Positions 9,161 to 61,560 of a stretch of 64,000 nt of DNA are shown one piece after another. Made by a program: the position numbers and the translations under genes. This DNA comes from Candidatus Parcubacteria bacterium (GTDB lineage: Bacteria; Patescibacteriota; Patescibacteriia; UBA1558; GWA2-36-10), in the NCBI GenBank assembly GCA_018669975.1, contig JABHSK010000005.1, positions 57,123 to 121,122 on the forward strand, written 5' to 3'. How positions within the stretch are numbered: position 1 is the first letter of the stretch; each line of letters opens with the position of its first letter. The notes under the pieces were generated by a model that saw only the letters and a program-made list of their open reading frames with translations, was not told the DNA's origin and searched no databases.

Positions 9161-10891
9161 ATGATTTCAGATATCAGTCAACCAACTTTAAATATTCTAG
9201 CCTGGTCAAAGGTTATATTCTTTCTGTATACATTTTTGACAATATTTTTTATGTATAAAAAAAGACAACCATGGATTTTTATGTTACTGACCACGGTTGT
9301 TTTTGTTTCTTTCTATTTAGTTTTTTCTTGGCCACTACAGACACTATGGTGGGGCAATGTTGGTGATGAAATGTTTGTGCTTGGGTTCCTAGGAAAAGTT
9401 TTATTAGGAGACCCTTGGCATGATTTTTATTATGGGTGGTTGCCACAGTTTTATCCACCTCTTTATTTTTGGGTAACTGGATTATTGTCTAAGCCATTTG
9501 CTAGTAATGCTATTGTAGCGGCTAAAGCAGGTATCACAGGAGTATTAATTCTTTGGTTCCTAGGTTCTTATTTATGGCAAAAGTATTTTTGGAACAAAGT
9601 GAATCAGAACAAGCAGGACAAAGCACTCGAGTCATCAGCCTGGTTTTGGTGGTTGATGCCAGTTCTTTATTTTGTAATGCTAGATTTTGATACTATCATG
9701 CTCAAGCCCTATGAGTGTTTACCAGCCTTATTTGGTGTAATTTTGATAGGATTGATAGCCAAAAGTTTCAATGATCAAAAGTGGTTCTTAAAACATTATC
9801 TATTTATTGGCATTAGCGGTGGTTTATTGTTTTTGATTTATTATTTCTGGTGGATAATGTTGGTGCCAACTATATTTATCATGGCTTTACTTAGTCGAGA
9901 CAAATGGCTTAATATAAAAAGAACAATCTGGTTTGGATTAATTATTTTTTTGGTAGCATCAGTATTTATAGTACCTTTATTTATATCTTATTTTAAATAC
10001 GGTTTAGAGAATGGTCAGGCAGTGCATTTTATTCCAGAAGATTTTTTTACTTTTGTGCCTTGGCGACATTTATCGCTGCAATCTATTATGTATCTATTGG
10101 GGTTGAGTGGATTAATATTTTTTGTTAAAAAAAGTTTTGTGCAATCAAGTTTAGTCGTCCTGTTAGTAGCCTTTGCTTACCAATTATTCAACTACGTCTA
10201 TCTTTTGTTGGGCAACAGACCAATGCAATCATCAAAGGCTTTTTGGTTTTTAGGTACAGCCGCAGCGGCGATTGGATTAACTTATTTATTGATCTATCTT
10301 TATCAAAAATATATTTCTCAGTGGCAACCCAAGTTTAGATTGGGTGTTATTGTGTTAGGGTTTGTATTACTTGTTTCTAGAATGCCTTTTGTTTATTTTG
10401 TGGATGATCCAGTAGTTCTAATGCAAATAGAAAAAGATTTGCAGGTTCCACAGGGTACGGTACAGATAGCAGAAGCCATTAAGACTAATGTGCCTGATTA
10501 TGCAGATAGAACCTGGTTATCAAGTGGTTCTATGGAGTTAGGCGCATACTTACCCTTGTCTTATTATATTGCACATAGTATTCATTTTAGCCACCATGCA
10601 TCAAATTATTCTCAAAGGATGTTGGAAGTGGAGAGTTTGAGTGCTGCTAGTAGTCCAGAAGAATTTATGGCTATTATTGAGCAGGGACAGCCTAGGCAAA
10701 TAGATGCTATGTTGTTGTATCATAATTCTGAGCTTGATCAAGCTGGTGATTATCCGCTGTGGTTTTGGCATGATAATTTTCCTAATGGCGGTAAAGATGC
10801 AGAGATTCGTATATCGCAGGACTTGATTTCGGAGCAAGATTGGCAAGTAGTTTATGATATGAACAATTGGACTGTATTTGTTAGAAAATAA
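9161..10891 (+). CDS. polytopic membrane protein (more than 10 TM helices) with a C-terminal extracytoplasmic domain; possibly a GT-C-type glycosyltransferase
   Basis: Many hydrophobic helices, Trp/Tyr-rich loops; no definitive motif. Confidence 0.45.
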   Translation: MISDISQPTLNILAWSKVIFFLYTFLTIFFMYKKRQPWIFMLLTTVVFVSFYLVFSWPLQTLWWGNVGDEMFVLGFLGKVLLGDPWHDFYYGWLPQFYPPLYFWVTGLLSKPFASNAIVAAKAGITGVLILWFLGSYLWQKYFWNKVNQNKQDKALESSAWFWWLMPVLYFVMLDFDTIMLKPYECLPALFGVILIGLIAKSFNDQKWFLKHYLFIGISGGLLFLIYYFWWIMLVPTIFIMALLSRDKWLNIKRTIWFGLIIFLVASVFIVPLFISYFKYGLENGQAVHFIPEDFFTFVPWRHLSLQSIMYLLGLSGLIFFVKKSFVQSSLVVLLVAFAYQLFNYVYLLLGNRPMQSSKAFWFLGTAAAAIGLTYLLIYLYQKYISQWQPKFRLGVIVLGFVLLVSRMPFVYFVDDPVVLMQIEKDLQVPQGTVQIAEAIKTNVPDYADRTWLSSGSMELGAYLPLSYYIAHSIHFSHHASNYSQRMLEVESLSAASSPEEFMAIIEQGQPRQIDAMLLYHNSELDQAGDYPLWFWHDNFPNGGKDAEIRISQDLISEQDWQVVYDMNNWTVFVRK

Positions 10892-10902
10892 GCAGTTTTG
10901 TA

Positions 10903-10931
10903 TAAAAATCCCTAATTTTTAGGGCTTTTTT
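10903..10931 (+). terminator. intrinsic terminator
   Basis: ccctaa-ttttt-agggc hairpin plus T-run. Confidence 0.55.
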
Positions 10932-11015
10932 GATAGACTTGCCAAAACTATTTTTTTATGATATAGTAATGTCGTTACAAACAGCGCTACGGGGCTGTTT
11001 TAAAGAACTTATATT

Positions 11016-11204
11016 TTGACTATGAACAAATTAATTGCATATCTAAAAGGTTCCAGAGAAGAGCTGGGCAAGGTAGATTGGCCAAATAGAGAAACTACTA
11101 TCAACCATACTGTTATGGTAATTGGTGTATCTGTGTTAGTAGCTGTTTTTCTAGGCGGTATTGATTTTTTGCTTAGTAAAGCTTTGAAAATTGTAGTTGG
11201 ATAA
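11016..11204 (+). CDS. secE: preprotein translocase subunit SecE
   Basis: About 60 aa with a single C-terminal TM helix and conserved N-terminal region; located upstream of nusG. Confidence 0.75.
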   Translation: MTMNKLIAYLKGSREELGKVDWPNRETTINHTVMVIGVSVLVAVFLGGIDFLLSKALKIVVG

Positions 11205-11224
11205 ATTATTTAATTTAAAAATAT

Positions 11225-11770
11225 ATGCCAAAACAAAATCCACAAAAAGGTAGGAGATGGTATGTTCTACATACCTATTCTGGTTACGAAGAAAATGTAT
11301 CTAGAAACTTGAAACAGAGGATTGAATCTATGGATATGGAAGATAAAATCTTTGATGTTTTGATTCCTACAGAAACCAAGATTAAGATTAAGAATGGAAA
11401 ACGTAGAACAGTTCAGGAAAAAATATTTCCTGGTTATGTTTTGGTAAATATGATAGTAACTGACGCTTCATGGTATGTAGTAAGAAACACTCCTAACGTT
11501 ACAGGTTTTGTTGGTTCAGGCACCACTCCAACTCCAGTTTCAGAGGAAGAGATTAAGTCACTGATGGCTAAGATGGGTCAGGAAGAGCCAGAGTTCAAAG
11601 TGGATATTGCTATTGGTGAGGTGGTTAAGATTACCGACGGACCATTTAAGGATTATGAAGGTAAAGTTTCAGAAATTGACGAGGCTCGTGGTAAAGCTAA
11701 GGTGCTAGTGTCCATGTTTGGTCGTGAAACACCAGTCGAATTAGATTTTCTACAAATTAAAAAAATATAA
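11225..11770 (+). CDS. nusG: transcription termination/antitermination factor NusG
   Basis: NGN domain WYVLHTYSGYEENV; KOW motif GEVVKITDGPFKDYEGKV. Confidence 0.9.
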   Translation: MPKQNPQKGRRWYVLHTYSGYEENVSRNLKQRIESMDMEDKIFDVLIPTETKIKIKNGKRRTVQEKIFPGYVLVNMIVTDASWYVVRNTPNVTGFVGSGTTPTPVSEEEIKSLMAKMGQEEPEFKVDIAIGEVVKITDGPFKDYEGKVSEIDEARGKAKVLVSMFGRETPVELDFLQIKKI

Positions 11771-11833
11771 TTAAGATAATCAGAGGGAGCCAGTTTGTCG
11801 AATTGGCGTTTGTACCTCACAAATAATATAAAT

Positions 11834-12262
11834 ATGGCTAAACAATTAAAGCAATTAGTAAAATTGCAAATCCAGGCTGGTAAAGCCACACCGGCTCCTC
11901 CAGTAGGTACTGCTTTAGGGCCACACGGTCTAAACATTCAGGAGTTTTGTACCAAATTTAATGACGCTACCAAGGACAGAATGGGTGAAGTTGTGCCTGT
12001 AGATTTAAGTATCTATGAGGACAGAACTTTTGATTTTGTACTTAAGACTGCGCCAGCATCTGATATGATCAAGAAAAAAATCAATCTCAAGAAAGGTTCA
12101 GGCAGACCTTTGCAGGAAAAAGTAGGCAAATTAACTCAAGCTCAGTTGACTGAGATTGCAGAAGCTAAAATGCCAGACTTGAATGCTAATGATATTGAAG
12201 CAGCTAAAAAGATTATCGCTGGTACTGCTAAGCAAATGGGTGTGCAAATTGAAGAAAATTAA
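11834..12262 (+). CDS. rplK: 50S ribosomal protein L11
   Basis: [39 protein letters not shown]; start chosen at the conserved MAK (ORF track begins 39 nt upstream). Confidence 0.9.
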
Positions 12263-12322
12263 TTTTTATTGAGGGAGCTCGGACTGTCATTTGAGCGTTT
12301 GCACCTCACAAATAATATAAAT

Positions 12323-13009
12323 ATGGCTAAAACAAGCAAAAGATTAAAAGAGGCACAAGCTAAAATTGATAATGAGAAAAAATATACTGCTGATGAAGGA
12401 ATTAAATTAGTTAAGGAAACTTCTCAGGTCAAATTTGACGCCTCAGTAGAAGTTCATGTCCGATTAGGCATTGATCCCAAGAAGGGTGATCAAATCGTTA
12501 GAAACTCAGTTATTTTACCTCACGGCACCGGTAAAACTATTAAGGTAGCAGCCTTTGTGCCAGAAGATAGAGCTAAAGAAGCTAAGGATGCTGGAGCAGA
12601 TGTAGTTGGCTCTGAAGAATTAATTGAATCAATCAAGAAGACTGGCAAAACTGATTTTGATATAGCAGTTACCATTCCTGAAATGATGAAGAATCTGGCT
12701 GTTATTGCTAAGATTTTAGGTCAAAAAGGTTTAATGCCAAATCCTAAAACTGGTACTATTGGTCCTGACCTGACCAAAATGATTGAAGAGCTTAAGAAAG
12801 GTAAGGTGTCCTATAAGAATGATGCTACTGCTAATCTACATATAACTATTGGTAAAGTATCATTTGAAGATAAGCAATTGATTGAAAATTTAGAAAAGTT
12901 TACAGATTCTCTGAAGAAATCAAAACCACAATCTTTAAAGGGAACATTTATTAAATCTCTTTATTTGACATCTTCTATGGGACCTAGTATTAAAATAGTT
13001 GTTAACTAA
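12323..13009 (+). CDS. rplA: 50S ribosomal protein L1
   Basis: MAKTSKRLKEAQAKIDNEKKYT...VRLGIDPKKGDQIVR; start chosen at the conserved MAK. Confidence 0.9.
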   Translation: MAKTSKRLKEAQAKIDNEKKYTADEGIKLVKETSQVKFDASVEVHVRLGIDPKKGDQIVRNSVILPHGTGKTIKVAAFVPEDRAKEAKDAGADVVGSEELIESIKKTGKTDFDIAVTIPEMMKNLAVIAKILGQKGLMPNPKTGTIGPDLTKMIEELKKGKVSYKNDATANLHITIGKVSFEDKQLIENLEKFTDSLKKSKPQSLKGTFIKSLYLTSSMGPSIKIVVN

Positions 13010-13023
13010 AATATTCACATTAA

Positions 13024-13055
13024 ACACGCCGCCCGAATGGGCGGCGTGTTTTTTA
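13024..13055 (+). terminator. intrinsic terminator ending the L11-L1 operon
   Basis: acacgccgccc-gaat-gggcggcgtgt hairpin (11 bp GC-rich) plus TTTTTT. Confidence 0.8.
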
Positions 13056-13369
13056 ATAAAGAGATTTTCTTGACAAGTTTTTTTATTGTGTATACACTGA
13101 AAGTACATAATAAAAATTATGTTAAACATTAGCTTAAAAAACAACAAGTCAAAGAGCTGTAGCTGTAGTTCATTCCGCAGCGGATTTGTTGTTGTTAGCT
13201 AATTACATATTTTTTATTATTTCATAGCCTTTTTGTGGGCAAATAATTGAATATAAATAATTTTATAGTAATCAGCTATCAACTTTACGTAGATAGCTTT
13301 TTTTGTATTCAAATTATTGTTCTTTTCACTTAGGGCGGAGTTGTTCATCTTTCTCAGGAGGCGTACAAA

Positions 13370-13693
13370 ATGTACAGAGACCGTCACAAATGTCGTGGGC
13401 CCATCAGCCACGTACTTCAGGATGCCTGGAAGCAGCGCATGCAGAGTAATCCCAGTAATGACGAATTGGTTGAAATTATCAAGCAAATCGTTGTTTGGCG
13501 GGAAGAGGCTGCTGCTGAGCTTCTCAAACGTGAGTTGAGTCTTACTATTCCTCAGTTGCGGGCAGTTGTCCAAAATGTTCCGGAATGGCAGGGTAAAGCT
13601 AGTCGTTTACTTGACCGTCTGATCGGTTGGGAGGGAGACAGGCAGTTACTGGAAGATCAAGAGGATAAGCCTAAGAAGCAGGCGATTGGCTAA
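13370..13693 (+). CDS. hypothetical protein (GC-rich cassette gene)
   Basis: AGGAGG SD 9 nt upstream of the ATG; local GC clearly above background; no recognisable family. Confidence 0.45.
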   Translation: MYRDRHKCRGPISHVLQDAWKQRMQSNPSNDELVEIIKQIVVWREEAAAELLKRELSLTIPQLRAVVQNVPEWQGKASRLLDRLIGWEGDRQLLEDQEDKPKKQAIG

Positions 13694-13705
13694 GGAGGTG
13701 ATATC

Positions 13706-13906
13706 ATGGCCAAAAAAATGCCTGATCAGAACAAGGGCTTTGATCGCGATGATCTTGTAGATAGTGCTACTGGTGATGAGTTAACGAATACTCAGAGAGG
13801 ATCTGGGGAGCATGAAGCCATCTATGGTCAAGAAGATGTCAGTAATTCTGATGTTTCCTGGACAGGTAATGATGATGATAGTGTTTCGCCATTTTTCGAT
13901 GGGTAA
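13706..13906 (+). CDS. hypothetical small highly acidic protein (net charge about -11 over 66 aa)
   Basis: AAGGAGGTG SD; 12 Asp plus 4 Glu versus 5 basic residues. Confidence 0.45.
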   Translation: MAKKMPDQNKGFDRDDLVDSATGDELTNTQRGSGEHEAIYGQEDVSNSDVSWTGNDDDSVSPFFDG

Positions 13907-14011
13907 CAGTCATGGGCGGTTTGATTTTCAAATCGCCCAGTATTAGAAATAAAGCATTGATATATATTTTAACGTGTGTTAAATTGATTTTAACAATTAA
14001 TCAACAATAGT

Positions 14012-15508
14012 ATGGATTTATTAATAAAAACTAAATCAGAAGACATAATGGAGGCCGAGGTATTATTTGTGCCTGTTTTAGAAGACGAACAAGCAATAAA
14101 GAATACAATTAAAAGCTTGCAATATGATGATCAAGCATGGGTATTGGATAAAATGTCCAAAGAAAAGTTTACAGGTAAAAAAGATCAGATATTAATTATG
14201 CCCGACGATGAGCAGGTGGTGATTTTTATTGGCACCGGACAAGCTGCTAAATTGTCTGTAGAAGATTGGCGTCAGATAGCTGGACAGGTGGTTGCATATT
14301 TAAAAAGATACTCAGCTCAGAGTATAGCTATGGTAGCCTCTCATTGGCTTAAAGGTAATCAAAATGTTAGAGCTTTGACTCAGGCTATGGCAGAAGGTAT
14401 TCTATTGGCTGGTTATGATTTTGATAAATATAAAAAAGAGGATTCTAGTAAAATTAAACTAAACCTTGAAAAAGTTTTTGTCTTAGCTAAAGCCAACCAA
14501 AGAGTAAAATTAAAACAGGGTTGGCAGGTAGGTCTATGGTTAGCAGAGGGCACTATTAAAGCCAGGGACTTAGTTAATGAGCCAGCTAGTGTGATGACTC
14601 CTACTTATTTAGCTAGACAAGCTGAACAAATAGCCAAAGTTAATAAAAGTATATCAGCAAAGATTTTGGAAAAAGCCCAGGTTAAAAAAATGGGCATGAA
14701 TGCTTTTTTAGCAGTTGATCAAGGTTCTAGTCAGGTGCCAAAGTTTATTCATTTGATATACAAGCCTACTGGCCGCACTAAAGACAAAATAGCCATTGTT
14801 GGTAAAGGAGTAACTTTTGATAGCGGTGGATTAAATATAAAGACCGGAGATTCCATGGAGCAGATGAAGATAGATATGGGAGGCGCAGCCACAGTGGTGG
14901 GATTATTTTCTGTGCTAGCTCAATTAAAGCCAAAGGTGGAGGTTCATGGAGTTATTGCTGCCTGTGAGAATATGCCTTCTGGAGCTGCTATTAAGCCAGG
15001 AGATATTGTTAAGAATATGCAGGGCAAGAGCATAGAAATAGGCAACACTGATGCTGAAGGTCGAGTGACCATGGCTGATTCATTGGCCTACGCTCAAAAG
15101 CAAGGTATCAGCAAGGTGGTGGATTTAGCTACTTTAACTGGTGCTGTGATGGCAGCTTTGGGTACGGATTATGCCGGTTTATTTGCTAATGATGAAAAGC
15201 TGGCTAAAGGTCTATTGAAGGCTGGGGATGTTTCTGGTGAAAATCTTTGGTTATTACCACTACCGTTGGAATATAAGAAACTTAATCAAAGTAAAGTAGC
15301 GGATATTAAAAACATACCTAGTACTAGGTATGGAGGAGCTATTACAGCAGCTTTATTTTTGCAGGAATTTATTGAAGAGGATGTAAAGTGGGCTCATCTA
15401 GATATAGCTGCACCAGTTTATGCTGAAAAACCAATGAATAGTTATACACCTGTAGGAGGAGTTGGTTTTGGAGTGCGTACACTATTTGAGTGGCTTAATA
15501 TTTTATAG
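14012..15508 (+). CDS. pepA: leucyl aminopeptidase (M17 family)
   Basis: NTDAEGR signature (GNTDAEGRVTMAD), GKGVTFDSGG, MKIDMGGAA. Confidence 0.85.
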   Translation: MDLLIKTKSEDIMEAEVLFVPVLEDEQAIKNTIKSLQYDDQAWVLDKMSKEKFTGKKDQILIMPDDEQVVIFIGTGQAAKLSVEDWRQIAGQVVAYLKRYSAQSIAMVASHWLKGNQNVRALTQAMAEGILLAGYDFDKYKKEDSSKIKLNLEKVFVLAKANQRVKLKQGWQVGLWLAEGTIKARDLVNEPASVMTPTYLARQAEQIAKVNKSISAKILEKAQVKKMGMNAFLAVDQGSSQVPKFIHLIYKPTGRTKDKIAIVGKGVTFDSGGLNIKTGDSMEQMKIDMGGAATVVGLFSVLAQLKPKVEVHGVIAACENMPSGAAIKPGDIVKNMQGKSIEIGNTDAEGRVTMADSLAYAQKQGISKVVDLATLTGAVMAALGTDYAGLFANDEKLAKGLLKAGDVSGENLWLLPLPLEYKKLNQSKVADIKNIPSTRYGGAITAALFLQEFIEEDVKWAHLDIAAPVYAEKPMNSYTPVGGVGFGVRTLFEWLNIL

Positions 15509-23920: not shown

Positions 23921-26900
23921 ATGAAAAAAGTTTTATCCATACCAATAGTTACTTTGATACTTGGCTATTTGCAAGTAAATAAAGTTTTGGCTCAGTCGGA
24001 CATTTTAGGTGTCAACGGTATGACCGATACAGTTTTGGGTACGAGAGGGATAGAGGATACAGTGGCCTCAATTATAAATATTGTTCTCGGTCTATTGGGA
24101 ATCATTGCTGTAGTTTTGATAATCTATGGCGGGTTTTTATGGATGACTTCTAAAGGAAATACCGATCAAGTTCAACGCGCTAAAATGGTTATTATTAGTG
24201 CGGTTATTGGTTTGGTGATAATCTTGTCTGCCTATGCTATCACTAGGTTTGTTCTTGGTGCTCTGGAGAATGCTGTAGGTCCTGGTGGAGGAACTCCACA
24301 ACAACAAAACCAAAATCCAGGAGGTGCCCTTTGTCCGCCGCCGTTAAATCCAGGTGCAGTAGAGGTTTGCGATCCATTTCCTTCTGCAGCTACTGTGGGT
24401 AGTGCTTTTACAGTGGGTGCTTGGAATATTGGTCCTTGGGATACCTTAGCTACAAGCTTTGTACAATTTAATGACTTGGCAGGTAATACAGCTGTAGCAG
24501 AAATAGCTAGTTGTGGTGCCAATGGATATTATTGGAATTTACTCTATACAGATATTAACACTGGAGATGATTATTATGAGATTAGAGCTCTAGTGCCAGC
24601 TCTACCAGTATCTTTACCAAATTATGATGTTGAGGTACATAATATTAATTTGGCAAATCCTTTTTACACGCCAGCAATGCAATTTGCTATATTAAGTGGG
24701 TCACCTGCACCAAGTATTTTCTGTATTCAACCTTCACATGCTGCGACTAGTACAGCAGTGTCTATCATTGGTCGTGGTCTAGGAGTAGGTGGGCAGGCTT
24801 TGGATGAGATATTTGTAAATGCTTACCCTGGCGGTGTGCACCAACCACAATTTCCAGTTCCCGGCCCGGTTCCTGGTCCAACTATTACAAATTGGGCGGA
24901 TGATCAAATTGATTTTATAATACCAGACCAACAGATCAGTGGTAATGTTACAGTTCAAGTAGATGATGGTGCGGGTAACTCAGATACCAGTAACCCAGTT
25001 TACTTTATAGTTGATTGCACCAATGATGGTGAGTGTGCTTCTGGTTGTTGTCCTGGTTCACCGGGACCAGGTGTTTATGCCTGTTCTGAGGAAGTGGTTT
25101 GTACGGGTATTAGCTCAGCACCACACATTACGGCTATTAATCCAGATAATGGTACTGATGGAAATATAGTTACAGTATTTGGTTATAATTTTTGTGATGA
25201 CGTTGCCTGTGCTCCAGGTACAGTTTGGTTTACAGATGGCGCAAATAACCCTGTGGCCGGTATCTTACCAAGTACTCTCAATGCGCAGTGTGGAGATTTT
25301 TGGACAGACACGGCTATTATAATTGGTGTACCACCAACAGTTGATACTGGACAAGTGACCATGGAAACTGCTGCTGCAGTAGCCAGTGATAACGCTATTA
25401 CTTTTACTGAAAATAACATAGAATATCCTGGTATTTGTGCACTACAAGATGGTGCAGGTAATCCTATTACTACTGGATTTTTTGATGATGGCATACCAGT
25501 ACATGTGCACGGCATTAGATTTAATAATAACGATAGAATTACTTTTGGCGGATTTTTAGGCTATAATCCTTCCTATCTAGGTTTACCAACAGAAGTGCAG
25601 GCTGATGTGCCAAATTCAGTAGGTATAGCTGATGTAGTAGTGACATCTTCCACTGAAGCAACAATTGTAAGTAATCCTTTTCCATTTTCTGCTTTAGCTG
25701 TAACAGGTGGCTTGCCTACCATTTCAGAAATATCACCAACTAGTACTCGTATAGGAAAATATACTACTATCATGGGTGCTAATTTTGGTACCACACCTGG
25801 TGATGTTGAATTTTGGCAATTAGGAGTACATATAGATGATGGGGAGTTTACTTTCCCAGCGCAGTGTGGCAGCCATTATTGGCAGCATGACAGTATAGTA
25901 GTTAAGCCACCAACAGATTTGATACTTAATGGTGGTAACTACGGAGATTTTGATGTGGTAGTTAGAAGAAGTGGCGACAACGCTACTAGCTTACCGCATC
26001 CTGTAGAAATATTAGCAGGACCTCCTGGGCCAGGCATTTGCTTGATGCAACCAGACAATGGTCCAGCTGGTAAGACTATTAATTTTTATGGTGATAATTT
26101 TAATACCGCAGCTGGTGCTGTAGTATTTCATAATAATGAATTTGCTGATTTAACAAATGCAATTTGGGGTAATCAGCAAGTATTGACTGTGCCTGTACCC
26201 AACAATGCAGCCACTGGTCCAGTATTTATCAGAGACTCAGCGGGCATGGATAGTAATGATTTGATGTTTAGTGTTGGTGCCTGTAGTTCTGATACGCAGT
26301 GTCAAAATAATTTGCAGGGTAATATATGTTGTCCAGATACCAATGGAAATTTTTGTGATAATTATTTAGGCTGTAGCTCAATCAATGAATGTACTTATGG
26401 TTGGCGATTTACCACTGAATCATTATTGCAAGTAGTGGGCTGGGGTCCTGTTTGTGATGATTCATGTATCAACGGTACTGTCTGGGTAGATTTTAATACA
26501 GAAATAGTCGCTGCAGATCTTGATTTTAATAATTTTAGTATTTTAGAATGTACTGACTCAACTTGTCAGAATACTAACCCAGGTAATTTTGTAACTGCGG
26601 CTAGTACATTTACTCAGCCAGCACCAGCAGCTGCAGGTGATCCTTGGGTGGTAAGTTTTACACACAACGCTTTTAATCCAAATACCTACTATCTAGTAGA
26701 GGTAAATCCAAATATTCAAAATACAGACGGTGCCATTTTAGGTAATCCGCATTCCTGGAGTTTTGCCACTGGTGCTAATAACTGTGACGTTGATCATATA
26801 AATGTAGCACCGGCTAGTAGGCCTGCTTATATAGGTGATGTTATACCATTTGGTGCACAAGCTTATTCTCCTCCAAGTAGCTGTTATCCGGCTGGTCAGC

Positions 26901-29900
26901 CAATTGCTTGTGACGCAGCTATCAGCTGTAGTTGGAGTGCTTGGACCAACGATGGCGCCTATACTACTCAGATTCCAACAGGAATACCGGAATCAATGGA
27001 TATATCAGCAGATGCTGTTACACTAGTTGGTGGTACCCAGATAGGAGCTGAGGCAGTACAAGGTGCTAATACATTTAATGACTTTGGTGTTTTGGATATT
27101 ACTGTTGGTCCAAATAGTTTATTGGGGCTTAATCGACAGGCATATGGTCCAACCTGTAGTGATTCATGTTTAAATGGTGACGTTTGGATAGAGTTTGATA
27201 GCGAAGTGACCGTCAATGAAGACGCTGCACACTTTAGTATTTTAGAATGTACAGATTCAACTTGTCAGAATACAGTGGGTCCTAATCAAACTAATAGTAC
27301 AACTCAGCCAGTACCAGCAGCCGTAGGTGATCCTTGGCGCGTAGAATTAAATCATAATAATTTTTCACCAAATACTTATTATCTAGTGACCATAGATGGC
27401 AATATTGCCAATAATATTGGTCCTCTTGTAGGTGGTACCTTTACTTGGAGTTTTGGAGCAGGTGATGCTGCCTGTGATGTGGGCAATCTACTGGTGTCTC
27501 CAGCTATTGCTAATGTTAATATTGGGGATACTGTTCATTATTCTGCTCAACCTTATTCTGCGCCAGGTATTTGTTATCCAAGTGGTCAAGCAATTTCTTG
27601 TGACGCAGCCATTGGCTGTAGTTGGAACGCTTGGACAAATGATGGTGCATATACTACTCAGATTCCAATTGCAGTAGACAATATAGATATTTTAGCTAAT
27701 AATCCAACGCCAGCTGTAGGAACTCCAGTAGGTGTAGGAGTGACTCAAGGTGCTACTACTTTCTCTGGTGTAGGTACTTTGAATATAGGTACCGGAGGAG
27801 CGTCAGTGTTCTCCTCCACTGGACATGGTCCAACTTGTAGTGATTCCTGTATTAATGGTTTGGTGCATGCTGACTTTAACGAAGAGCCAGACTTCCTTCC
27901 TTCCACAAGAATTTATCAGTGTGACGATGCTACCTGTACAGCTACTTCTGGACCAAGTTTATTAGTTGGAACAAATACATATCAACTAATGGTTGGTGGT
28001 GACTGGCGAGTTCGACTTTTTCATACTCCTTTTACACCAGGTGTATCTTATCAAGCTTATGTAGATGGTGGCACTTATCATACCTATGCATCAGGTGATG
28101 CTTATCTAGGCAATGCTTTGATGTGGAGTTTTGGCACAGGCGTAAACAGCTGTGATGTTGATCGTGCAGACATTTATCCTCCAGGTCCAGATCCAATTTT
28201 AAGCACTGTAAATTTAGGAGATAATATTAGTTATTCTGTGGAGACCTATTCCGTGCCAGGTATTTGTTATCCAGGTGGTCAACCAATCGTCTGTGATGCA
28301 TCTATTGGTTGTATCTTATTTTGGAATGCAAACAGTCAACCGGGTGGTTTAGTGAATATAACCACTGCGCAAGATACTGATTCAGTTACTTACAATGCAA
28401 CTACCGTCGGTAATAATGATACGGTAAGGATGAGAGCCGTGCAGAATGCAACACAGTTTCTAGATGCCACTGATGTTGATGTTGTTACTGGCGTGCTTCC
28501 AGGTAGTCCAAATATAGTTGACCATGAGCCAGTAGCACTGCCAGTTTGTATTAATGCTGCGCCAACAGTTGTTTTTGATCAGTTGATGGATTCAGCTAGT
28601 ATTAATAGTAATGTTAAAGTATATAGAACTGGAACTCCGGGACCTAATTGTATTAGTCCTGGTAATCCTACTCTTTGTGAGGTTCCAGGTTCATTTACTC
28701 TTGTAGCAGATTCAGCCATACCAGAGACACGGGCCATATTCAATCCCGATACATATTTGGCTACTTCTACAAATCATTATTTATATGTAGGTCCAAACAC
28801 GCAGAGTTTAGATGGTCAGAGTCTTGGTTGGACTACTGACCTTGCGTTTTCTATGCTGGAAGTAACTGGTGATGGAGTTGTGGATGGACTTGCTTGGATG
28901 TTTCCTACTAATCAAACTGTTTGTCAACTTAGTCATGCGATAATCACGCCAACTTATGATTTCTTTCATTGTTCTTTAGATGATTGTGATGAAAATGATG
29001 TTGCACCGGGTGGTAATAATGAGCATAGATATACTGCTGTAGCCTATGGTGTGGATGGTTCACCGCTAAACGTTTCTAATTATTGGTGGACTAACAGTGA
29101 TCCTTCCATATTTACTATAGACTCTCAGACAACTCAACAGATTATGGGTTGGCCAGGATTTGATAATGGGCATGTTACTTTGTCTGTATCAGCCTGGGAC
29201 AATGACCCAGCTATTACAGGTACCGTTGGAGCAGCAGCAGGTATTGAAATTTTCCTTTGTGAAAATCCATGGCCTAGTGCAAACACCGTGCCTTGGGAGC
29301 CAGGCCCACCACCAAATCCTTATCATTATTCAACCCTATATTGTTTAGATGATGGTGATGGTGGATTCCTACCTTACTTAGATGCAGCTGTATCAGCTAC
29401 TAATCCAAATCCAAATGGTGTTTTAAATGCCGGTGAAAGAATATTTATTATCAACCCATCTAGTTCCATGGGAAGTTTGAATTTAGCTCAATATCAGTTT
29501 GGTAGTTTAGCTTATGGAAGAGAGTTGGATATTGATAATAATTTAAGTGAAAATAAATCGTGGTTTGAGAAAATTAGAACTGCTCTTTGGGGAGATGTTA
29601 AAAAAGCAGAGGGACAGGCCAATGCCTTACCAATGTGTGCGCCAGGTAACCCGACAAATCTACAGGTCAGTAGTGTAGATGACACTCAGGTTACCTTGAC
29701 TTGGGGTAACGCTTCAAGTGGTGTTGGACCCAATGGTGCAGTCACAAACTATAATATGTACCGTAGAGAAATTCCAAATGGTAATTATCCAGGCCCTTTA
29801 CAGGGCACTATAAATGTGCCAGGGCAGAGAATATTTACAGATAATACTGTAGTGACAGATACTATTTATGAATATACCGTGACTGCTGAGGCATCAGCTT

Positions 29901-32900
29901 GTCCTGCAGAAACTTTTCCTGTAGTCAGTACGACTGTTACAGCATCTATTTCACAGCCGCATGTAGATATCATAGGTCTTAGGGTGATGGGCAACGATGA
30001 GCACTTGTCTATTACTGATTGGTATAAACAACATGCACCAAATCCAGAAGTACTTGGTGAGATAAAAGAAATAGATGGCTATGAGGCCATGCAAGTTGGT
30101 AATACCACTTATATAGGTGCTTTGAACATGTCAGGACTTATTTATACAAATGTTTATATAATATCCCACAATATAGGTGCTAGTGGAGACACTCGTGATA
30201 TCTATAAGCAATTTATAGAAAACATGAAGTTCAACACTAACATGCCTAGATTGGAAAATGTCTGTAATGCAGATACATCAATTATTTGTTCTAGTGATTT
30301 TGATTGTCCGGTGGGAGATTATTGTACATCTAGAGATTTAAAAATAAAACGTGATTTACAACGCCTAGGTGACTTGATGAATGTTAAAAACATGGTAGAG
30401 GAATATGGTCAATCACATAAGGCTTGTAGTCATAATAGTGCTATTGCTTGTGTAGATGACTCACCTTGTATTTTAGGAGGAGGCACCTGTGTCTCATATT
30501 ATCCATTGCTTAATGCAGGAACCTTTGTGAATGGTATGAGTAATAGTAATTGGCCATCATGGAATACTACTTTACGTACTATTTTGGGAGAGGAATTACC
30601 AGAAGATCCAATTGGTTTATTTAACGGGTGTCCACCAGGTGCTGACCCTGACACATGTTGGGATGAATTAGTTTCACCACCAGAGTTTACTTGTCCAGCT
30701 GAATCATTGATATATTTTTATAATAATGATGTTAATGTTTCGCAAGGTATAGACTATTTCTTGGGAGCCAATTTTGAGTATGATTCTAGTCCAGCTTTAC
30801 ATTTTGATCCTTCGGGGTTTAATCCGTTGACTTTTGGTTGTGATTTATATAATGGACCAGCTAGTATAACTGGTATTTGGCCAGACCCGGCTTGTCCGGT
30901 ACCACAGGATGGTATGCCACATATTTATTCTAGTTTAGATAGCCTGTGTAGTGTGGCTAGTGTTTATTCTCCAGGTGCAGTCACTATCCCTTCTTGTGGA
31001 AATGGCACCTGGGAACCAGATGGTGTTGATGGTGTGCCAAATACACCTGACGATGAAATATGTGAACCTGGTATGCAGAGAAATTTGTGTATAGAAACAG
31101 TAGTTCCGCTAGGAACGGATTGGTGGGATGCAGGAAACCACATAGGTGGTTGTAATCCTGTCGGCACAGAAGATGCCGGTGGTAATCTAATTGAGTGTAC
31201 TTGGTATGAGCCAGATCCTGCTCTAACGGCAGTAGATTGTGGAGGCTATTGTGGTAATAATACTATAGATCCAGTTGAGTCCTGTGATGGTGCAGCTGGT
31301 TTTGATGGACTTTATACTTGCTACGATCCAGATACCATGACTACTAGTACCCCTGTTTGTAATATTAATGTTTGCCAAGCTTTTTGCCCAACCGGAAACT
31401 TAGCATCCCTCTGTGGAGATGGTGCTTGGGATGCTAGCTATGAACAATGTGATGCCAGTGCTGATCCAAGCGGATTGGTAGGCTGGGATTGTGGTGTGGT
31501 GGCTACTTCAACGGTAGCTTGTAATAATTGTGCTATAGAATGTACTATCGGCGGAACTTTATATAATGGTGTATGTGGTAATGATATTATTGAGTGGCCA
31601 GAAGAATGTGAGCCAGGAATACATATTCCTCCAACAGCAGCGACTTCATCGCCGACTTATCAATATTTATGTGATCCTACTTATTGTGTTTATGATGGTG
31701 GTTATTGCGCAGATGGCATTAATCCTGGACCGTATGATTCAGGCGGCAATACTAATGAAGTGGCCATATTGATAGATGGTAGTGCTTTCTACCAACCAGA
31801 AGAATGTGATGATTTAGAATGGGATATACCACAGAGGCATAATTCAGATCAAGATTATGAATATTTATGTAATTCTTGCGTAATTGAAGGTGGCTATTGT
31901 GGTGACGGCAATCGAGATTCTGCAGCTGGTATTTCTCCTAGTCCACCAGAAGAATGTGATGATGGTAATAATTCTGAGGCAGATGTCTGTACTAATGCCT
32001 GTGAGTGGGGCTGTGAAGATGTGGCAATTGGGCCTTTTCCAAGAGCGCCAATTTTGGCTGGCTACATTTCCTCAAAGAATACCGACGATGGTTTATTGTT
32101 TAACACTACTGATGCCACAGTAGAGCTACACGCTGGAGACTCGGCTACGCTACCTCTAGGTAGTTGTCGTATCAGTGGCGATGTAGTAGTTGATGTGACT
32201 GTGCATGGTAATGATTCATATGCAGGTATAGTATTTGTTGTGGACAGGTCAAGTAGTATGAGTGGTGATATAGCTGCTGCTAAAAATGCGATCGGTTCTG
32301 CTATTGTGACAATATTTGACCGTAATCCAACTGCTCAAATTGCTATCGTTGAGTACGGAGATGACGCTTGGACAAGAATTAATTTTACAGGTTTTGAGCA
32401 GGAGAATTTATTAATTGGTAGTTTTAGGAAAACTGGTGCTATAGGAGGAGCAGTTAACCAAATTAATGCCGATAGGCCTAGTACAGACCACTCTATTGGT
32501 TTAGATAGGGCTTATGGTTTATTTAATGCTACTAGCTTTGAGAATAACATAGTTATTTTTATGACAGATGGGAGTCCAACTGGTGGTGTAACTGGGAACT
32601 GTGTTAATGGTGCTAATGTTGGTGATGCCTACGGTCGGACCTTATGTATAGCTGAAAATGATCTTAAATTTTGTAACAATCCCGCAGTAGACACGTGCGT
32701 AGATATGTTTACAGTAGCCTTTACTTCTAATGTCGGTTTGCAAGGTTTTTTAAACGCCGTTTCTTCTTCAGATTGTGTTTATTCTAATTATGGAAGATCA
32801 ACTACAGGGGGTACTTGCGGTAGTAATGGTATTGAATGTCTAAATACTTTAAATCAACGGGAAGAATGTGATGGTGGTCCAGACTGTATATCATCTGCCT

Positions 32901-33265
32901 TGCCCAACGCTTGTCAATGGTCAGGAGATAGGGTTAATGACAATAGGGCGTATTCTGGTAGTAGTCAAGCGGAGTTGGCTCAGATGTATCAGGATATATC
33001 AGGATCCATCCCTATTAATAATGTTTTACTTGCCTTGGATAATTCGGGTGCTACTACCACATTAAATGATATTGGAGTTACTTTTGATAATTCTTACCGT
33101 ATTCATACCAATGGAATTGCAACTTGCAGTGACGGCTCCACTGTTGATAATGAGCTAAATATTAGTGCTAATTTTACAGGTAATATAAATGCTTATCTAG
33201 AATTGAGCAATCCAGTTTATGAATTCTGCCATTGGTATAACTGTCCCTGGTGTTTTAATAACTAA
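23921..33265 (+). CDS. giant (3114 aa) multidomain cell-surface protein: TrbC/VirB2-like N-terminal membrane module; IPT/TIG-like domains; 3 tandem repeats of about 230 aa; FN3; Cys-rich CGDG...ECDDGN repeats (Myxococcus-type, DUF4215-like); vWA domain with MIDAS DRSSS
   Basis: Single uninterrupted 9345-nt ORF; motifs PHITAINPDNGTDGNIVTVFGYNF (IPT), PTNLQVSSVDDTQVTLTW (FN3), CGDGNRDSAAG...EECDDGNNSEADVCTNAC, FVVDRSSSMSGDIAAAKNAIG (vWA). Confidence 0.75.
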   Translation: MKKVLSIPIVTLILGYLQVNKVLAQSDILGVNGMTDTVLGTRGIEDTVASIINIVLGLLGIIAVVLIIYGGFLWMTSKGNTDQVQRAKMVIISAVIGLVIILSAYAITRFVLGALENAVGPGGGTPQQQNQNPGGALCPPPLNPGAVEVCDPFPSAATVGSAFTVGAWNIGPWDTLATSFVQFNDLAGNTAVAEIASCGANGYYWNLLYTDINTGDDYYEIRALVPALPVSLPNYDVEVHNINLANPFYTPAMQFAILSGSPAPSIFCIQPSHAATSTAVSIIGRGLGVGGQALDEIFVNAYPGGVHQPQFPVPGPVPGPTITNWADDQIDFIIPDQQISGNVTVQVDDGAGNSDTSNPVYFIVDCTNDGECASGCCPGSPGPGVYACSEEVVCTGISSAPHITAINPDNGTDGNIVTVFGYNFCDDVACAPGTVWFTDGANNPVAGILPSTLNAQCGDFWTDTAIIIGVPPTVDTGQVTMETAAAVASDNAITFTENNIEYPGICALQDGAGNPITTGFFDDGIPVHVHGIRFNNNDRITFGGFLGYNPSYLGLPTEVQADVPNSVGIADVVVTSSTEATIVSNPFPFSALAVTGGLPTISEISPTSTRIGKYTTIMGANFGTTPGDVEFWQLGVHIDDGEFTFPAQCGSHYWQHDSIVVKPPTDLILNGGNYGDFDVVVRRSGDNATSLPHPVEILAGPPGPGICLMQPDNGPAGKTINFYGDNFNTAAGAVVFHNNEFADLTNAIWGNQQVLTVPVPNNAATGPVFIRDSAGMDSNDLMFSVGACSSDTQCQNNLQGNICCPDTNGNFCDNYLGCSSINECTYGWRFTTESLLQVVGWGPVCDDSCINGTVWVDFNTEIVAADLDFNNFSILECTDSTCQNTNPGNFVTAASTFTQPAPAAAGDPWVVSFTHNAFNPNTYYLVEVNPNIQNTDGAILGNPHSWSFATGANNCDVDHINVAPASRPAYIGDVIPFGAQAYSPPSSCYPAGQPIACDAAISCSWSAWTNDGAYTTQIPTGIPESMDISADAVTLVGGTQIGAEAVQGANTFNDFGVLDITVGPNSLLGLNRQAYGPTCSDSCLNGDVWIEFDSEVTVNEDAAHFSILECTDSTCQNTVGPNQTNSTTQPVPAAVGDPWRVELNHNNFSPNTYYLVTIDGNIANNIGPLVGGTFTWSFGAGDAACDVGNLLVSPAIANVNIGDTVHYSAQPYSAPGICYPSGQAISCDAAIGCSWNAWTNDGAYTTQIPIAVDNIDILANNPTPAVGTPVGVGVTQGATTFSGVGTLNIGTGGASVFSSTGHGPTCSDSCINGLVHADFNEEPDFLPSTRIYQCDDATCTATSGPSLLVGTNTYQLMVGGDWRVRLFHTPFTPGVSYQAYVDGGTYHTYASGDAYLGNALMWSFGTGVNSCDVDRADIYPPGPDPILSTVNLGDNISYSVETYSVPGICYPGGQPIVCDASIGCILFWNANSQPGGLVNITTAQDTDSVTYNATTVGNNDTVRMRAVQNATQFLDATDVDVVTGVLPGSPNIVDHEPVALPVCINAAPTVVFDQLMDSASINSNVKVYRTGTPGPNCISPGNPTLCEVPGSFTLVADSAIPETRAIFNPDTYLATSTNHYLYVGPNTQSLDGQSLGWTTDLAFSMLEVTGDGVVDGLAWMFPTNQTVCQLSHAIITPTYDFFHCSLDDCDENDVAPGGNNEHRYTAVAYGVDGSPLNVSNYWWTNSDPSIFTIDSQTTQQIMGWPGFDNGHVTLSVSAWDNDPAITGTVGAAAGIEIFLCENPWPSANTVPWEPGPPPNPYHYSTLYCLDDGDGGFLPYLDAAVSATNPNPNGVLNAGERIFIINPSSSMGSLNLAQYQFGSLAYGRELDIDNNLSENKSWFEKIRTALWGDVKKAEGQANALPMCAPGNPTNLQVSSVDDTQVTLTWGNASSGVGPNGAVTNYNMYRREIPNGNYPGPLQGTINVPGQRIFTDNTVVTDTIYEYTVTAEASACPAETFPVVSTTVTASISQPHVDIIGLRVMGNDEHLSITDWYKQHAPNPEVLGEIKEIDGYEAMQVGNTTYIGALNMSGLIYTNVYIISHNIGASGDTRDIYKQFIENMKFNTNMPRLENVCNADTSIICSSDFDCPVGDYCTSRDLKIKRDLQRLGDLMNVKNMVEEYGQSHKACSHNSAIACVDDSPCILGGGTCVSYYPLLNAGTFVNGMSNSNWPSWNTTLRTILGEELPEDPIGLFNGCPPGADPDTCWDELVSPPEFTCPAESLIYFYNNDVNVSQGIDYFLGANFEYDSSPALHFDPSGFNPLTFGCDLYNGPASITGIWPDPACPVPQDGMPHIYSSLDSLCSVASVYSPGAVTIPSCGNGTWEPDGVDGVPNTPDDEICEPGMQRNLCIETVVPLGTDWWDAGNHIGGCNPVGTEDAGGNLIECTWYEPDPALTAVDCGGYCGNNTIDPVESCDGAAGFDGLYTCYDPDTMTTSTPVCNINVCQAFCPTGNLASLCGDGAWDASYEQCDASADPSGLVGWDCGVVATSTVACNNCAIECTIGGTLYNGVCGNDIIEWPEECEPGIHIPPTAATSSPTYQYLCDPTYCVYDGGYCADGINPGPYDSGGNTNEVAILIDGSAFYQPEECDDLEWDIPQRHNSDQDYEYLCNSCVIEGGYCGDGNRDSAAGISPSPPEECDDGNNSEADVCTNACEWGCEDVAIGPFPRAPILAGYISSKNTDDGLLFNTTDATVELHAGDSATLPLGSCRISGDVVVDVTVHGNDSYAGIVFVVDRSSSMSGDIAAAKNAIGSAIVTIFDRNPTAQIAIVEYGDDAWTRINFTGFEQENLLIGSFRKTGAIGGAVNQINADRPSTDHSIGLDRAYGLFNATSFENNIVIFMTDGSPTGGVTGNCVNGANVGDAYGRTLCIAENDLKFCNNPAVDTCVDMFTVAFTSNVGLQGFLNAVSSSDCVYSNYGRSTTGGTCGSNGIECLNTLNQREECDGGPDCISSALPNACQWSGDRVNDNRAYSGSSQAELAQMYQDISGSIPINNVLLALDNSGATTTLNDIGVTFDNSYRIHTNGIATCSDGSTVDNELNISANFTGNINAYLELSNPVYEFCHWYNCPWCFNN
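26440..28520 (+). repeat. three tandem in-frame repeats of about 690-700 bp (about 230 aa) inside the giant gene
   Basis: Recurring GPTCSDSC(I/L)NG..W.(D/E)F...ILECTDSTCQNT...GDPW...YYLV...CDV...YS.P..CYP.GQ.I.CDAAI.CSW.AWTNDGAYTTQIP, with stretches of near-identical DNA. Confidence 0.7.
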
Positions 33266-39934: not shown

Positions 39935-40130
39935 CGAGGTTAGATTCCTCCACAGTCCTAGCTACGGTATATCCCCAAAGGGGTAAAGTCCGACACCTGA
40001 GTTTTATTCTTTTTTCTAAGGAGAGAAAGGGCAAATTTATTATAAAGATAATAACTTTATCCGTCCTCTCCTTAATGGGGAGTTTTTTAATAGTTAAAAT
40101 TGTTCTTTATCAATAAATCAAGGAGGTAGA
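39935..40130 (+). promoter_or_regulatory. structured 5' leader (candidate cis-regulatory RNA) upstream of the TTG-start lipoprotein gene
   Basis: GC-rich about 75-nt segment with a cccc-aaa-gggg hairpin and a CUAGCUAC octamer, followed by an aaggagag...ctctcctt long stem and U-run; then SD AAGGAGG and TTG. Confidence 0.3.
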
Positions 40131-40133
40131 GCG

Positions 40134-40622
40134 TTGAACATCACTCGTCGTAAAGTTGTTAAACGGGGGTTGGGTATTCTAGTGTTTGCTCCGTTTGTGA
40201 GCTTGAGTAGTCTTCTATCGGGATGCATGAATATCACTGATCCCGAGGTAGAGTTACCGAAGCAACCCGAACAGCCATTGGCTGACAAGTCCGAACCAGA
40301 GGATCTAGTGCAATCAGGTACTGTAGCTGATTTTTTACAGAGGCGGGTAATATCTATTGAGTATTACGAGCAGTCTGATTGGAATTGTGGCTCTGGTCTA
40401 TTATTGATGAAGCACCTGGTGACTTCTCGTGGAGACCATGGTCTAGATGGGTATGAATATTTTATCAACGGAGAGTGTGTCCAGGAGGCTATTAATTTAG
40501 TTGATTTCAATCCCAGTCAGAGATTGTCTATTAAACGAAATGGACAGCGTGTCTGGAGCTATAAGCCTAGGACCAGACCTAATGTTCATATGCATGAACA
40601 AGCTCTACCAGAACCAACTTGA
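40134..40622 (+). CDS. putative Tat-signal lipoprotein, GC-rich cassette gene (TTG start)
   Basis: RRKVVKRG twin-Arg-like n-region, hydrophobic core, lipobox LLSGC; AAGGAGG SD 7 nt upstream of the TTG; local GC about 50%. Confidence 0.5.
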   Translation: MNITRRKVVKRGLGILVFAPFVSLSSLLSGCMNITDPEVELPKQPEQPLADKSEPEDLVQSGTVADFLQRRVISIEYYEQSDWNCGSGLLLMKHLVTSRGDHGLDGYEYFINGECVQEAINLVDFNPSQRLSIKRNGQRVWSYKPRTRPNVHMHEQALPEPT

Positions 40623-50792: not shown

Positions 50793-51155
50793 ATGAATTT
50801 GGAAATATTTTTACAGAGTGCTATACTAATAGTGTAGCTCTTTTCTTTTGAATAATATAAAACTCTACAACAATATAGTAAAGGGAACTTTATATTGACT
50901 GGGGCTGTGGCCTTATGTTTGCGAGTACCCACCTGTTCTATCAGGGGTTTACTATCTTCAAAAGCAGAGCTACGAGTCGTCAATTAGTAAAAGATAAACT
51001 ATGTACGAAGATGACTTGCAAAAAGGCGTTTTATCTGTATAATAACGATAGAAACGTCTTTTTGTTTTTCCCGTGAAACATGGGAATTGTATTTTTAGAT
51101 AAAATTCGTACCTTAAAACTAAGGATAAAAATTTCCAAAATCAAGGAGGCTTACT

Positions 51156-51827
51156 TTGAGAGCAAATGGAAAGATACCGCTGATAGCTAATCATGATGGA
51201 TTTATTTTTGATCTAGATATGACCCTAGTGGAGACTCACTTTATCAACTGTATTTATGTATCTATCTTGGCTACTATTCGAGAATTGGGTGGAATTATAC
51301 CTGATGTTGATTTAGCTAGAAAATTTTGGTACGGTTCTGTTCATAGGGATCAATGCATATTCAGGCAATTTGGTTTGGATCCTAAGTTGTTCTGGGCTAC
51401 TTTCCGGAAGTATGATACGCCAGAATTTCGTTTGGCTCATACTACGGTAGTTCCTGGAGCTCGAGAGGCATTATTGCTTCTTAAAACCAAAAGGAAAAAA
51501 GTGGCTATCATTACTGCCTCAGTGGCTCATATGGCTGAACCAGAGATTGAAATGCTTGAGTTTGATTTCGATGCACACTTTTCGGTGTCAGAATCACCAG
51601 ACTTCGAGCCCAAGCCCGACCCGCAGAGCCTTGAGCTTATGATGCAAACCTTGTCAGTGCAACCTGATCGTACGGTATATACTGGCGATAGTCATGAAGA
51701 TAATCGCTTTGCCAACAATGCCGGGGTCAAATTTGTTTACTATGATCGTAATAGGGGTATTGCTATGCCACACGAGCCTGACGCTACCTTTAATGACTGG
51801 AAACAATATCCAACTTTAGAAGTATAA
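51156..51827 (+). CDS. HAD-superfamily hydrolase (TTG start), GC-rich cassette gene
   Basis: Motif I FIFDLDMTLV (DxDxT); AAGGAGG SD 7 nt upstream of the TTG; consensus-like promoter TTGCAA-16-TATAAT at about 51013-51041. Confidence 0.6.
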   Translation: MRANGKIPLIANHDGFIFDLDMTLVETHFINCIYVSILATIRELGGIIPDVDLARKFWYGSVHRDQCIFRQFGLDPKLFWATFRKYDTPEFRLAHTTVVPGAREALLLLKTKRKKVAIITASVAHMAEPEIEMLEFDFDAHFSVSESPDFEPKPDPQSLELMMQTLSVQPDRTVYTGDSHEDNRFANNAGVKFVYYDRNRGIAMPHEPDATFNDWKQYPTLEV

Positions 51828-61454: not shown

Positions 61455-61560
61455 CACCTCCTTTTGGGGTTGAAGAAATTTTCCCTCCTGAATGCACCAA
61501 CTAGTGATACTCTCAGGAGGGAGCCAGTCTGAGACTGGCTTGAAAAAATTGTATGTAGAG
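61455..61560 (-). promoter_or_regulatory. structured 5' leader of the 33-aa peptide gene containing an anti-SD element
   Basis: On the minus strand: perfect hairpin gccagtc-tca-gactggc, then ctccctcctga...tcaggaggga (10-bp stem) immediately upstream of the true SD AAGGAGG; the CCCUCCU segment could alternatively sequester the SD. Confidence 0.35.

Follow-up and report, generated by a model that had tools for sequence, protein, structure and literature searches.

Candidate L1 operators before both rplK and rplA in a Patescibacteria ribosomal protein operon

In the 64-kb stretch of DNA analysed here (the window), the leaders of rplK and rplA each carry one copy of an irregular hairpin. As the earlier note on this DNA had proposed, both leaders very probably carry a mimic of the L1-binding site of 23S rRNA (helices 76-78), and we put the probability that both elements are L1 autoregulatory operators, copies of the canonical operator, at about 0.85. 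This reading is favored because a covariance model of the hairpin, R1, is specific to rplA and rplK leaders and also recovers the L1 operator of Escherichia coli and the L1 stalk of 23S rRNA; the shared irregular fold and the covariation of its helices point the same way. Structure, conservation, covariation, the exclusive position upstream of rplA and rplK, and the equivalence to the E. coli operator were all computed.

The secE-nusG-rplK-rplA cluster and its repeated leaders

The region is a secE-nusG-rplK-rplA gene cluster, all four genes of which match NCBIfam equivalog models above the cut-offs. Its features are as follows:

10939 to 10967, + strand: candidate sigma-70-type promoter 5' of secE, TTGCCA-17-TATAGT with TG before the second hexamer (consensus match only, 10/12)
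11022 to 11204, + strand: secE (NCBIfam TIGR00964 match)
11225 to 11770, + strand: nusG, the gene 5' of the first leader (TIGR00922, E 2.8e-63, above the curated cut-off)
11783 to 11818, + strand: putative L1 operator before rplK, copy K (MFE structure equal to the centroid, -13 kcal/mol; R1 35.2 bits, E 1.2e-8)
Parts of copy K, + strand: P1 11783-11786/11815-11818 (GAGG/CCUC); 5' bulge GA 11787-11788; P2 11789-11796/11800-11807; loop GUC 11797-11799; 3' strand GUUUGUA 11808-11814
11819 to 11833, + strand: 15-nt A/U-rich spacer ACAAAUAAUAUAAAU without Shine-Dalgarno (SD) sequence, from operator K to the rplK AUG; predicted unpaired, presumed 30S landing region
11834 to 12262, + strand: rplK, ribosomal protein L11 (TIGR01632 L11_bact, E 1.7e-55)
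12271 to 12307, + strand: putative L1 operator before rplA, copy A (same fold as copy K, -11.9 kcal/mol; R1 39.6 bits, E 4.6e-10)
Parts of copy A, + strand: P1 12271-12274/12304-12307; bulge GA 12275-12276; P2 12277-12283/12290-12296; loop CUGUCA 12284-12289; 3' strand GUUUGCA 12297-12303
12308 to 12322, + strand: 15-nt A/U-rich SD-less spacer before rplA, identical in sequence to the one before rplK; predicted unpaired
12323 to 13009, + strand: rplA, ribosomal protein L1, the presumed repressor binding both operators (TIGR01169 rplA_bact, E 6.6e-90)
13022 to 13054, + strand: predicted intrinsic terminator closing the operon, with a 13-bp GC-rich stem, a GAAU loop and a U run (folding)

The spacers measure 63 nt between nusG and rplK and 60 nt between rplK and rplA. 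In a consensus scan of 10700-13400, the match at 10939-10967 was the best on the + strand, and neither spacer holds one as strong. This candidate promoter upstream of secE is the likely start of a secE-nusG-rplK-rplA transcript, and the four genes may be co-transcribed, as good promoter matches, judged by the consensus scan only, are absent from both spacers. Within the operon, a strong terminator was found after rplA only (-25.7 kcal/mol, z = -6.5, with none of 200 shuffles as stable).

Past this terminator, a promoter-like TTGACA-17-TACACT lies at 13070-13098, followed by about 250 nt of A/T-rich sequence with an imperfect inverted repeat, AACAACAAG...TTTGTTGTTGTT, at about 13140-13196, and then by short GC-richer ORFs at 13370-13906. 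The genes rplJ and rplL are not found 3' of rplA in the window (13010-13370). Farther away, at 23921-33265 on the + strand, the window contains one ORF of 3114 aa. The genomes closest to the window are MAGs of Patescibacteria that carry the labels Komeilibacteria or Parcubacteria; their L1 identity is at most 78%. Window positions 11244-14859 are matched at 100% identity by all 3616 nt of a JGI metagenome contig (L090, Ga0209249_1014977), which presumably comes from the same population as the window.

The 45 nt upstream of the two start codons had been described as nearly identical. The repeat is real, but the near-identity covers a 37-nt block only, consisting of 28 nt upstream of the ATG and nine coding nucleotides (ATGGCTAAA); a repeat search of the 64-kb window found this block at 11806-11842 and 12295-12331 with 36/37 identical positions. 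There are exactly two copies of GCGTTTGYACCTCACAAATAATATAAATATGGCTAAA in the window, at these same positions, and none of 100 shuffles gave any match. Over the full 45 nt, only 34/45 positions are identical in an ungapped manual count because the hairpin stem differs between the copies. The second shared element, said to lie about 50 nt upstream of both ATGs, was recovered as GAGGGAGC at 11783-11790 and 12271-12278, which places it at -51 relative to the rplK ATG (11834) and at -52 relative to the rplA ATG (12323). A third GAGGGAGC, at 61517, was rejected as an operator, as R1 gives no match there. The interval 11771-12330, quoted at first for the duplicated leader, also takes in the whole rplK gene.

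No SD core is present 4-13 nt upstream of either ATG, in agreement with the earlier note. The accompanying view that most other genes in this region have strong AGGAGG sequences does not hold, as only three of the 49 predicted genes have an SD core of at least 4 nt at 4-13 nt upstream of the start, which is rarer than the 13% obtained for random positions. On average, A+T makes up 82% of the 20 nt that precede the starts of these 49 genes. An SD-less leader is the rule in this genome and sets rplK and rplA apart from nothing. In two of the rare genes with a strong SD, the TTG start is preceded by nearly the same motif, TCAAGGAGG (40110-40136 and 51132-51158, with ORFs 40134-40622 and 51156-51827). 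We also considered N-terminally extended L11 and L1 proteins that would start at in-frame TTGs at 11795 and 12269, and rejected them, as MAK is the N-terminus of the homologues and the spacers differ in length from genome to genome.

The hairpin and its equivalence to known L1 sites

Both leaders are predicted to form one shared irregular hairpin, with the MFE structure equal to the centroid. It consists of a 4-bp P1 (GAGG/CCUC), a 5' GA bulge, a P2 of 7-8 bp and the 7-nt 3' strand GUUUGYA, and it ends 15 nt before the AUG in each case. P2 opens with a G-C and a C-G pair in both copies, and the small loop includes GUC. The P2 stems of copies K and A differ at several positions, and these changes are compensatory. 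In shape, both hairpins fit the published L1-site consensus (PMC3616713), in which an irregular stem-loop of about 6-12 bp is interrupted by an internal bulge, where an unpaired A comes after a potential G-A pair. As single-sequence folding gave unremarkable z-scores (-0.9 to -2.4), the support for the predicted hairpin comes from the comparison between genomes and not from thermodynamics.

For this comparison, 80 related loci were collected by L1 homology, and nusG, rplK, and rplA were located in them. A copy of the hairpin lies just 5' of rplA in almost all of these loci; rplA leaders of the Komeilibacteria-like type read GAGGGAGC...ACCUC, and those of the Magasanikbacteria-like type read GUGGGAYC...ACCAC. 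A hand-written pairing descriptor, used first, was too permissive, with 467 background matches in 1.1 Mb, and was replaced by R1, which was built from a MAFFT alignment of 71 distinct Patescibacteria leaders. These training leaders were chosen with the descriptor, yet the descriptor match lies 5' of rplA in 75 of the 80 loci and in the window, in comparison to a background of 0.43 matches per kb.

In the 71-leader alignment, the helices covary, which was the check that had been suggested for related leaders. The second pair of P1 is A-U in 33 leaders and U-A in 38, all five scored P2 pairs vary on both sides, and in total 6-7 of nine pairs change on both sides; none of 500 shuffles reached the covariation score. 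Paired cells amount to 98.9%, and this value collapsed to 41-55% in controls with the partner slid. The core positions G, GG, A and ACC.C are invariant in the same alignment.

R1 proved to be highly selective. On the 64-kb window, with E up to 10, it gave two matches only, which are the two leaders, 488 nt apart and with similar scores. On 489 kb of the 80 related loci, with E up to 1, it gave 86 matches, 85 of which lie directly 5' of rplA or rplK, and the matches include leaders that had been left out of training. The scores range from 29.9 to 43.4 bits for rplK copies and from 26.4 to 42.1 bits for rplA copies. In more distant, SD-using metagenome bacteria, rplA is preceded by the same core, which there adjoins AAGGAG without a gap.

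Throughout the Komeilibacteria-like clade, (A/U)GUC is conserved in the P2 loop, as in CUAGUCGG and UUAGUCAC (window 11797-11799 and 12285-12288; P2 loops of loci L001-L023). The Magasanikbacteria-like leaders mostly have ACCAC-type P2 loops instead. A conserved P2 loop is absent from the published L1 consensus.

R1 was also run with filters off on both strands of 15 kb of E. coli K-12 sequence that includes rrnB and nusG-rplKA. The top match was GGGAGCCUcucagAGGCGUUAUUACC, located 17 nt before the rplK AUG (15.4 bits, E 0.005), and we take this stretch to be exactly the mapped L1 site. The third match was nt 2119-2179 of 23S rRNA, the L1 stalk; it is a weak match (8.4 bits, E 0.8) because the stalk has a long insertion. 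As a scan of the window found no rRNA gene, this comparison with the rRNA covers the 23S rRNA of E. coli. In two publications (PMC3616713 and PMC10931766, citing Baughman & Nomura 1983 and Thomas & Nomura 1987), the L1 target is described as mapped to the rplK 5' UTR.

The E. coli operator and the window sites have nearly the same core, GGGAGCC-hairpin-GGCGUUAUUACC in E. coli and GGGAGCC-hairpin-GGCGUUUGUACC in the window. The operator also stands at a similar distance from the AUG (17 nt in E. coli, 15 nt in the window), and in both cases a site lies 3' of nusG and 5' of rplK. However, E. coli has a single site, rplA is regulated by translational coupling over a 3-nt spacer, and a GAGG Shine-Dalgarno sequence lies between site and AUG, whereas the window has two sites, a 60-nt spacer, and no SD. 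The L1 stalk of 23S rRNA (helices 76-78) has its flanking recognition core in common with the leaders, with GUGGGAGGC ... AAUACCAC (E. coli nt 2119-2179) to be compared with GUGGGAYC ... GUACCAC and GAGGGAGC ... GYACCUC of the leaders. In the rRNA, however, the helices meet in a three-way junction, H78 is long and H77 is additional, whereas the mRNA site is one short hairpin with a 7-nt strand. Published work indicates that L1 has a lower affinity for mRNA than for rRNA (PMC2175363).

A comparison with the Rfam leader models, which had also been suggested, gave no match for the window leaders, neither at the gathering threshold nor at E up to 10. As a control, we scanned the L1 operator of E. 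coli, which likewise gets no match in Rfam 15. The negative Rfam result is uninformative and says nothing against the assignment to L1, because Rfam 15 misses even the E. coli operator. R1 fills this gap, as Rfam 15 is without a model that detects the L1 operator.

Distribution and origin of the two copies

The distribution of the sites was scored in loci with adjacent rplK and rplA and a spacer of 54-116 nt, which are 23 genomes counting the window (22 related loci). The rplA site is present in all of them (23/23; 22/22 related loci), and the rplK site in 10/23, namely the window and loci L001-L004, L007, L011, L012, L022, and L023; the other relatives have the rplA site only. Dual sites also occur in the metagenome loci L083, L097, and L108. 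The duplication is not absent in relatives, an outcome that the earlier note had considered, but recurs in at least ten species genomes and in further metagenome contigs. Locus L021, with an rplK-rplA spacer of 4 nt, has the rplK site only, which is the E. coli arrangement, and L085, with a spacer of about 7 nt, also has the rplK site only. The gap between operator and AUG is kept within narrow limits; measured from the 3' end of P1, it amounts to 14-18 nt at each of the 11 rplK sites (window included) and to 12-20 nt at most rplA sites.

Judged by its presence in nearly all related Patescibacteria, the rplA-proximal site is the ancestral one. The rplK site appears to be derived, because the genomes that have it fall mostly in one Komeilibacteria-like subclade of a neighbor-joining tree of NusG, L11, and L1. 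As many close relatives manage with the rplA site alone, the rplK site should be dispensable in principle.

In seven of the ten dual-site genomes, the two copies within a genome are 0.86-0.96 identical; the mean for orthologous copies is 0.64-0.78, and the rplK DNA identity between dual-site genomes is 0.69-0.92. L011 and L012 each have a unique hairpin variant that is common to both of their own copies. In the window, the pattern is a mosaic: the rplK hairpin resembles the rplK hairpin of L083 (14/18), and its 3' half equals that of its own rplA copy (35/36). For L108, the nearest relative, the hairpins are identical (19/19), and the 3' halves agree at 32/36 positions. The 3' half is well conserved among close relatives anyway (31-33/36), so selection also contributes to the likeness of the copies. 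The mosaic fits short-tract gene conversion between two old copies and thus an apparent, patchy concerted evolution. Taken together, we slightly favor the view that the rplK operator arose in the Komeilibacteria-like subclade as a duplicate of the complete rplA initiation module (operator, A/U-rich SD-less spacer, and first codons), and that the copies, 490 nt apart, have since repeatedly exchanged sequence by short-tract gene conversion, so that L1 affinity and the strength of initiation would remain alike for both cistrons.

Other arrangements were seen in the wider set of loci. In L024, L026, L043, L051, L060, L064, L069, and L080, a conserved gene of about 140 aa lies between rplK and rplA, with spacers of 508-643 nt; the inserted protein has apparently hydrophobic (membrane-like) segments near each end, and the L1 operator stays with rplA. 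A membrane-like protein of about 320 aa is found between rplK and rplA in L041 and L044, and a protein of about 336 aa in L035. The Magasanikbacteria-like loci (L028-L079) mostly have no rplK within 3 kb 5' of rplA, yet rplA keeps its operator, which is often preceded by an apparent TTGACA-type promoter.

Predicted regulation, known dual sites and alternative explanations

According to the arrangement described above, a secE-nusG-rplK-rplA mRNA would carry an operator in front of rplK and a second one in front of rplA, each 15 nt from the AUG. L1 in excess of free 23S rRNA would bind the GGGAG/ACC core of each irregular hairpin. As the bound L1 would lie directly against the A/U-rich SD-less initiation region, it would hinder loading of the 30S subunit and so repress the synthesis of L11 and L1, each independently through the operator of its own cistron. 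A separate site for each cistron would be needed because the 60-nt spacer precludes tight translational coupling as in E. coli. What we infer from the sequence in this scheme is that L1 binds the hairpins, that it represses by competing sterically with the 30S subunit, and that the genes are co-transcribed. The predicted operators adjoin an SD-less A/U-rich initiation region in a genome in which SD sequences are rare.

In archaea such as Methanococcus vannielii, the L1 site is rplA-proximal, and the archaeal operon is rplA-rplJ-rplL. The earlier note had regarded a duplicated L1 site as unusual among bacteria, which the literature contradicts. Fu et al. 2013 (PMC3616713) found that over 40% of Firmicute genomes have sites before both rplK and rplA, both Geobacillus kaustophilus sites bind L1 with a Kd of 25-50 nM, and Bacillus subtilis co-transcribes rplK and rplA (PMC3616713). 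Thermus thermophilus and Thermotoga maritima are further bacteria with dual sites, according to a review of 2024 (PMC10931766, section 3.1). Bacteria with a site before rplA only are known too, namely Actinobacteria, Cyanobacteria, and Chloroflexi (PMC3616713). Like these groups and the archaea, the wider clade of the window has a single rplA site as its putative ancestral state, found in nearly all 80 relatives; unlike them, the window has a second site added before rplK.

The window shares with the Firmicutes (G. kaustophilus and B. subtilis), T. thermophilus, and T. maritima the arrangement of one operator before each of the two genes and the same irregular stem-loop with an internal bulge. 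The rplK-rplA pair is co-transcribed in those bacteria and may be so in the window. The window differs in belonging to the phylum Patescibacteria (Komeilibacteria-like) and in its duplicated unit, which is the whole SD-less initiation region plus the first three codons. The two copies of the window clade also show homogenization within genomes, a feature scored here in Patescibacteria alone. Whereas L1 binding has been measured for Firmicute sites, the window sites are known from sequence.

As a literature search for Patescibacteria linked with L1 leaders found no paper, the window is the first Patescibacteria example found in that search of an otherwise known mechanism, dual L1 operators. With this example, L1 autoregulation and its two-operator layout would reach into the candidate phyla radiation, whose members are uncultured and genome-reduced and whose gene regulation is almost unknown. 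No new mechanism is revealed; what is modestly novel is that the second copy was gained recently and apparently evolves in concert with the first. The related loci provide a small and clean natural series of autoregulatory rewiring, with gain of a second operator, loss in some lineages, a single rplK site at a 4-nt spacer, and apparent concerted evolution.

As most relatives with the same gene order have no rplK site, it is conceivable that only the ancestral rplA site works and that the rplK copy is a neutral by-product of duplication or gene conversion, kept for its A/U-rich ribosome-loading spacer. The frequent near-identity of the copies within a genome (0.86-0.96) is also what recent copying predicts. 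However, the rplK copy persists in at least ten species genomes whose rplK DNA is 69-92% identical, it reaches R1 scores as high as those of the rplA copies, and in L021 it is the sole site. In the window, L004, L007, and L022, the P2 differences between the copies are compensatory, which indicates selection on the hairpin, and in Geobacillus both sites bind L1 (PMC3616713). We therefore regard a neutral rplK copy as improbable.

It is even less probable that the hairpins are generic intergenic RNA elements unrelated to L1 that serve, for instance, in RNase processing, RNA stability or transcription attenuation. Processing hairpins are indeed frequent between the genes of a polycistronic operon, which is where these hairpins lie, and they match no Rfam family; as the E. 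coli operator is unmatched too, the latter point carries no information. The stems lack a following U run and are not terminators, so the attenuator or terminator reading was rejected. Moreover, the unpaired GGGA ... ACC is invariant or nearly so while the stems covary, which is typical of a protein-recognition site, and R1 recovers both the E. coli L1 operator and the L1 stalk of 23S rRNA. We rejected as extremely unlikely that the repeat is dispersed, is left over from a mobile element, or reflects a chance resemblance between A/T-rich stretches of low complexity, as might be suspected from the A/T-rich 15-nt spacer and the similar AAUAAU-type spacers in relatives. The 64 kb hold no more than two copies, 100 shuffles gave none, and both copies lie at a fixed distance from their start codons, likewise across about 80 genomes.

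A pattern scan of metagenomes returned 30 loci, 12 of which had no nusG, rplK, or rplA nearby and no rRNA, mostly with low R1 scores; by a rough calculation, about 12 chance matches to the 20-base pattern are expected in such a collection. Operator-like hairpins were also seen in two short metagenome contigs, L089 (377-419) and L094 (1473-1512), with R1 scores of 31.5 and 32.7 bits and no nusG, rplK, or rplA homologue by tblastn. The gene context of these two may have diverged or be truncated, or they may be genuine sites at other places.
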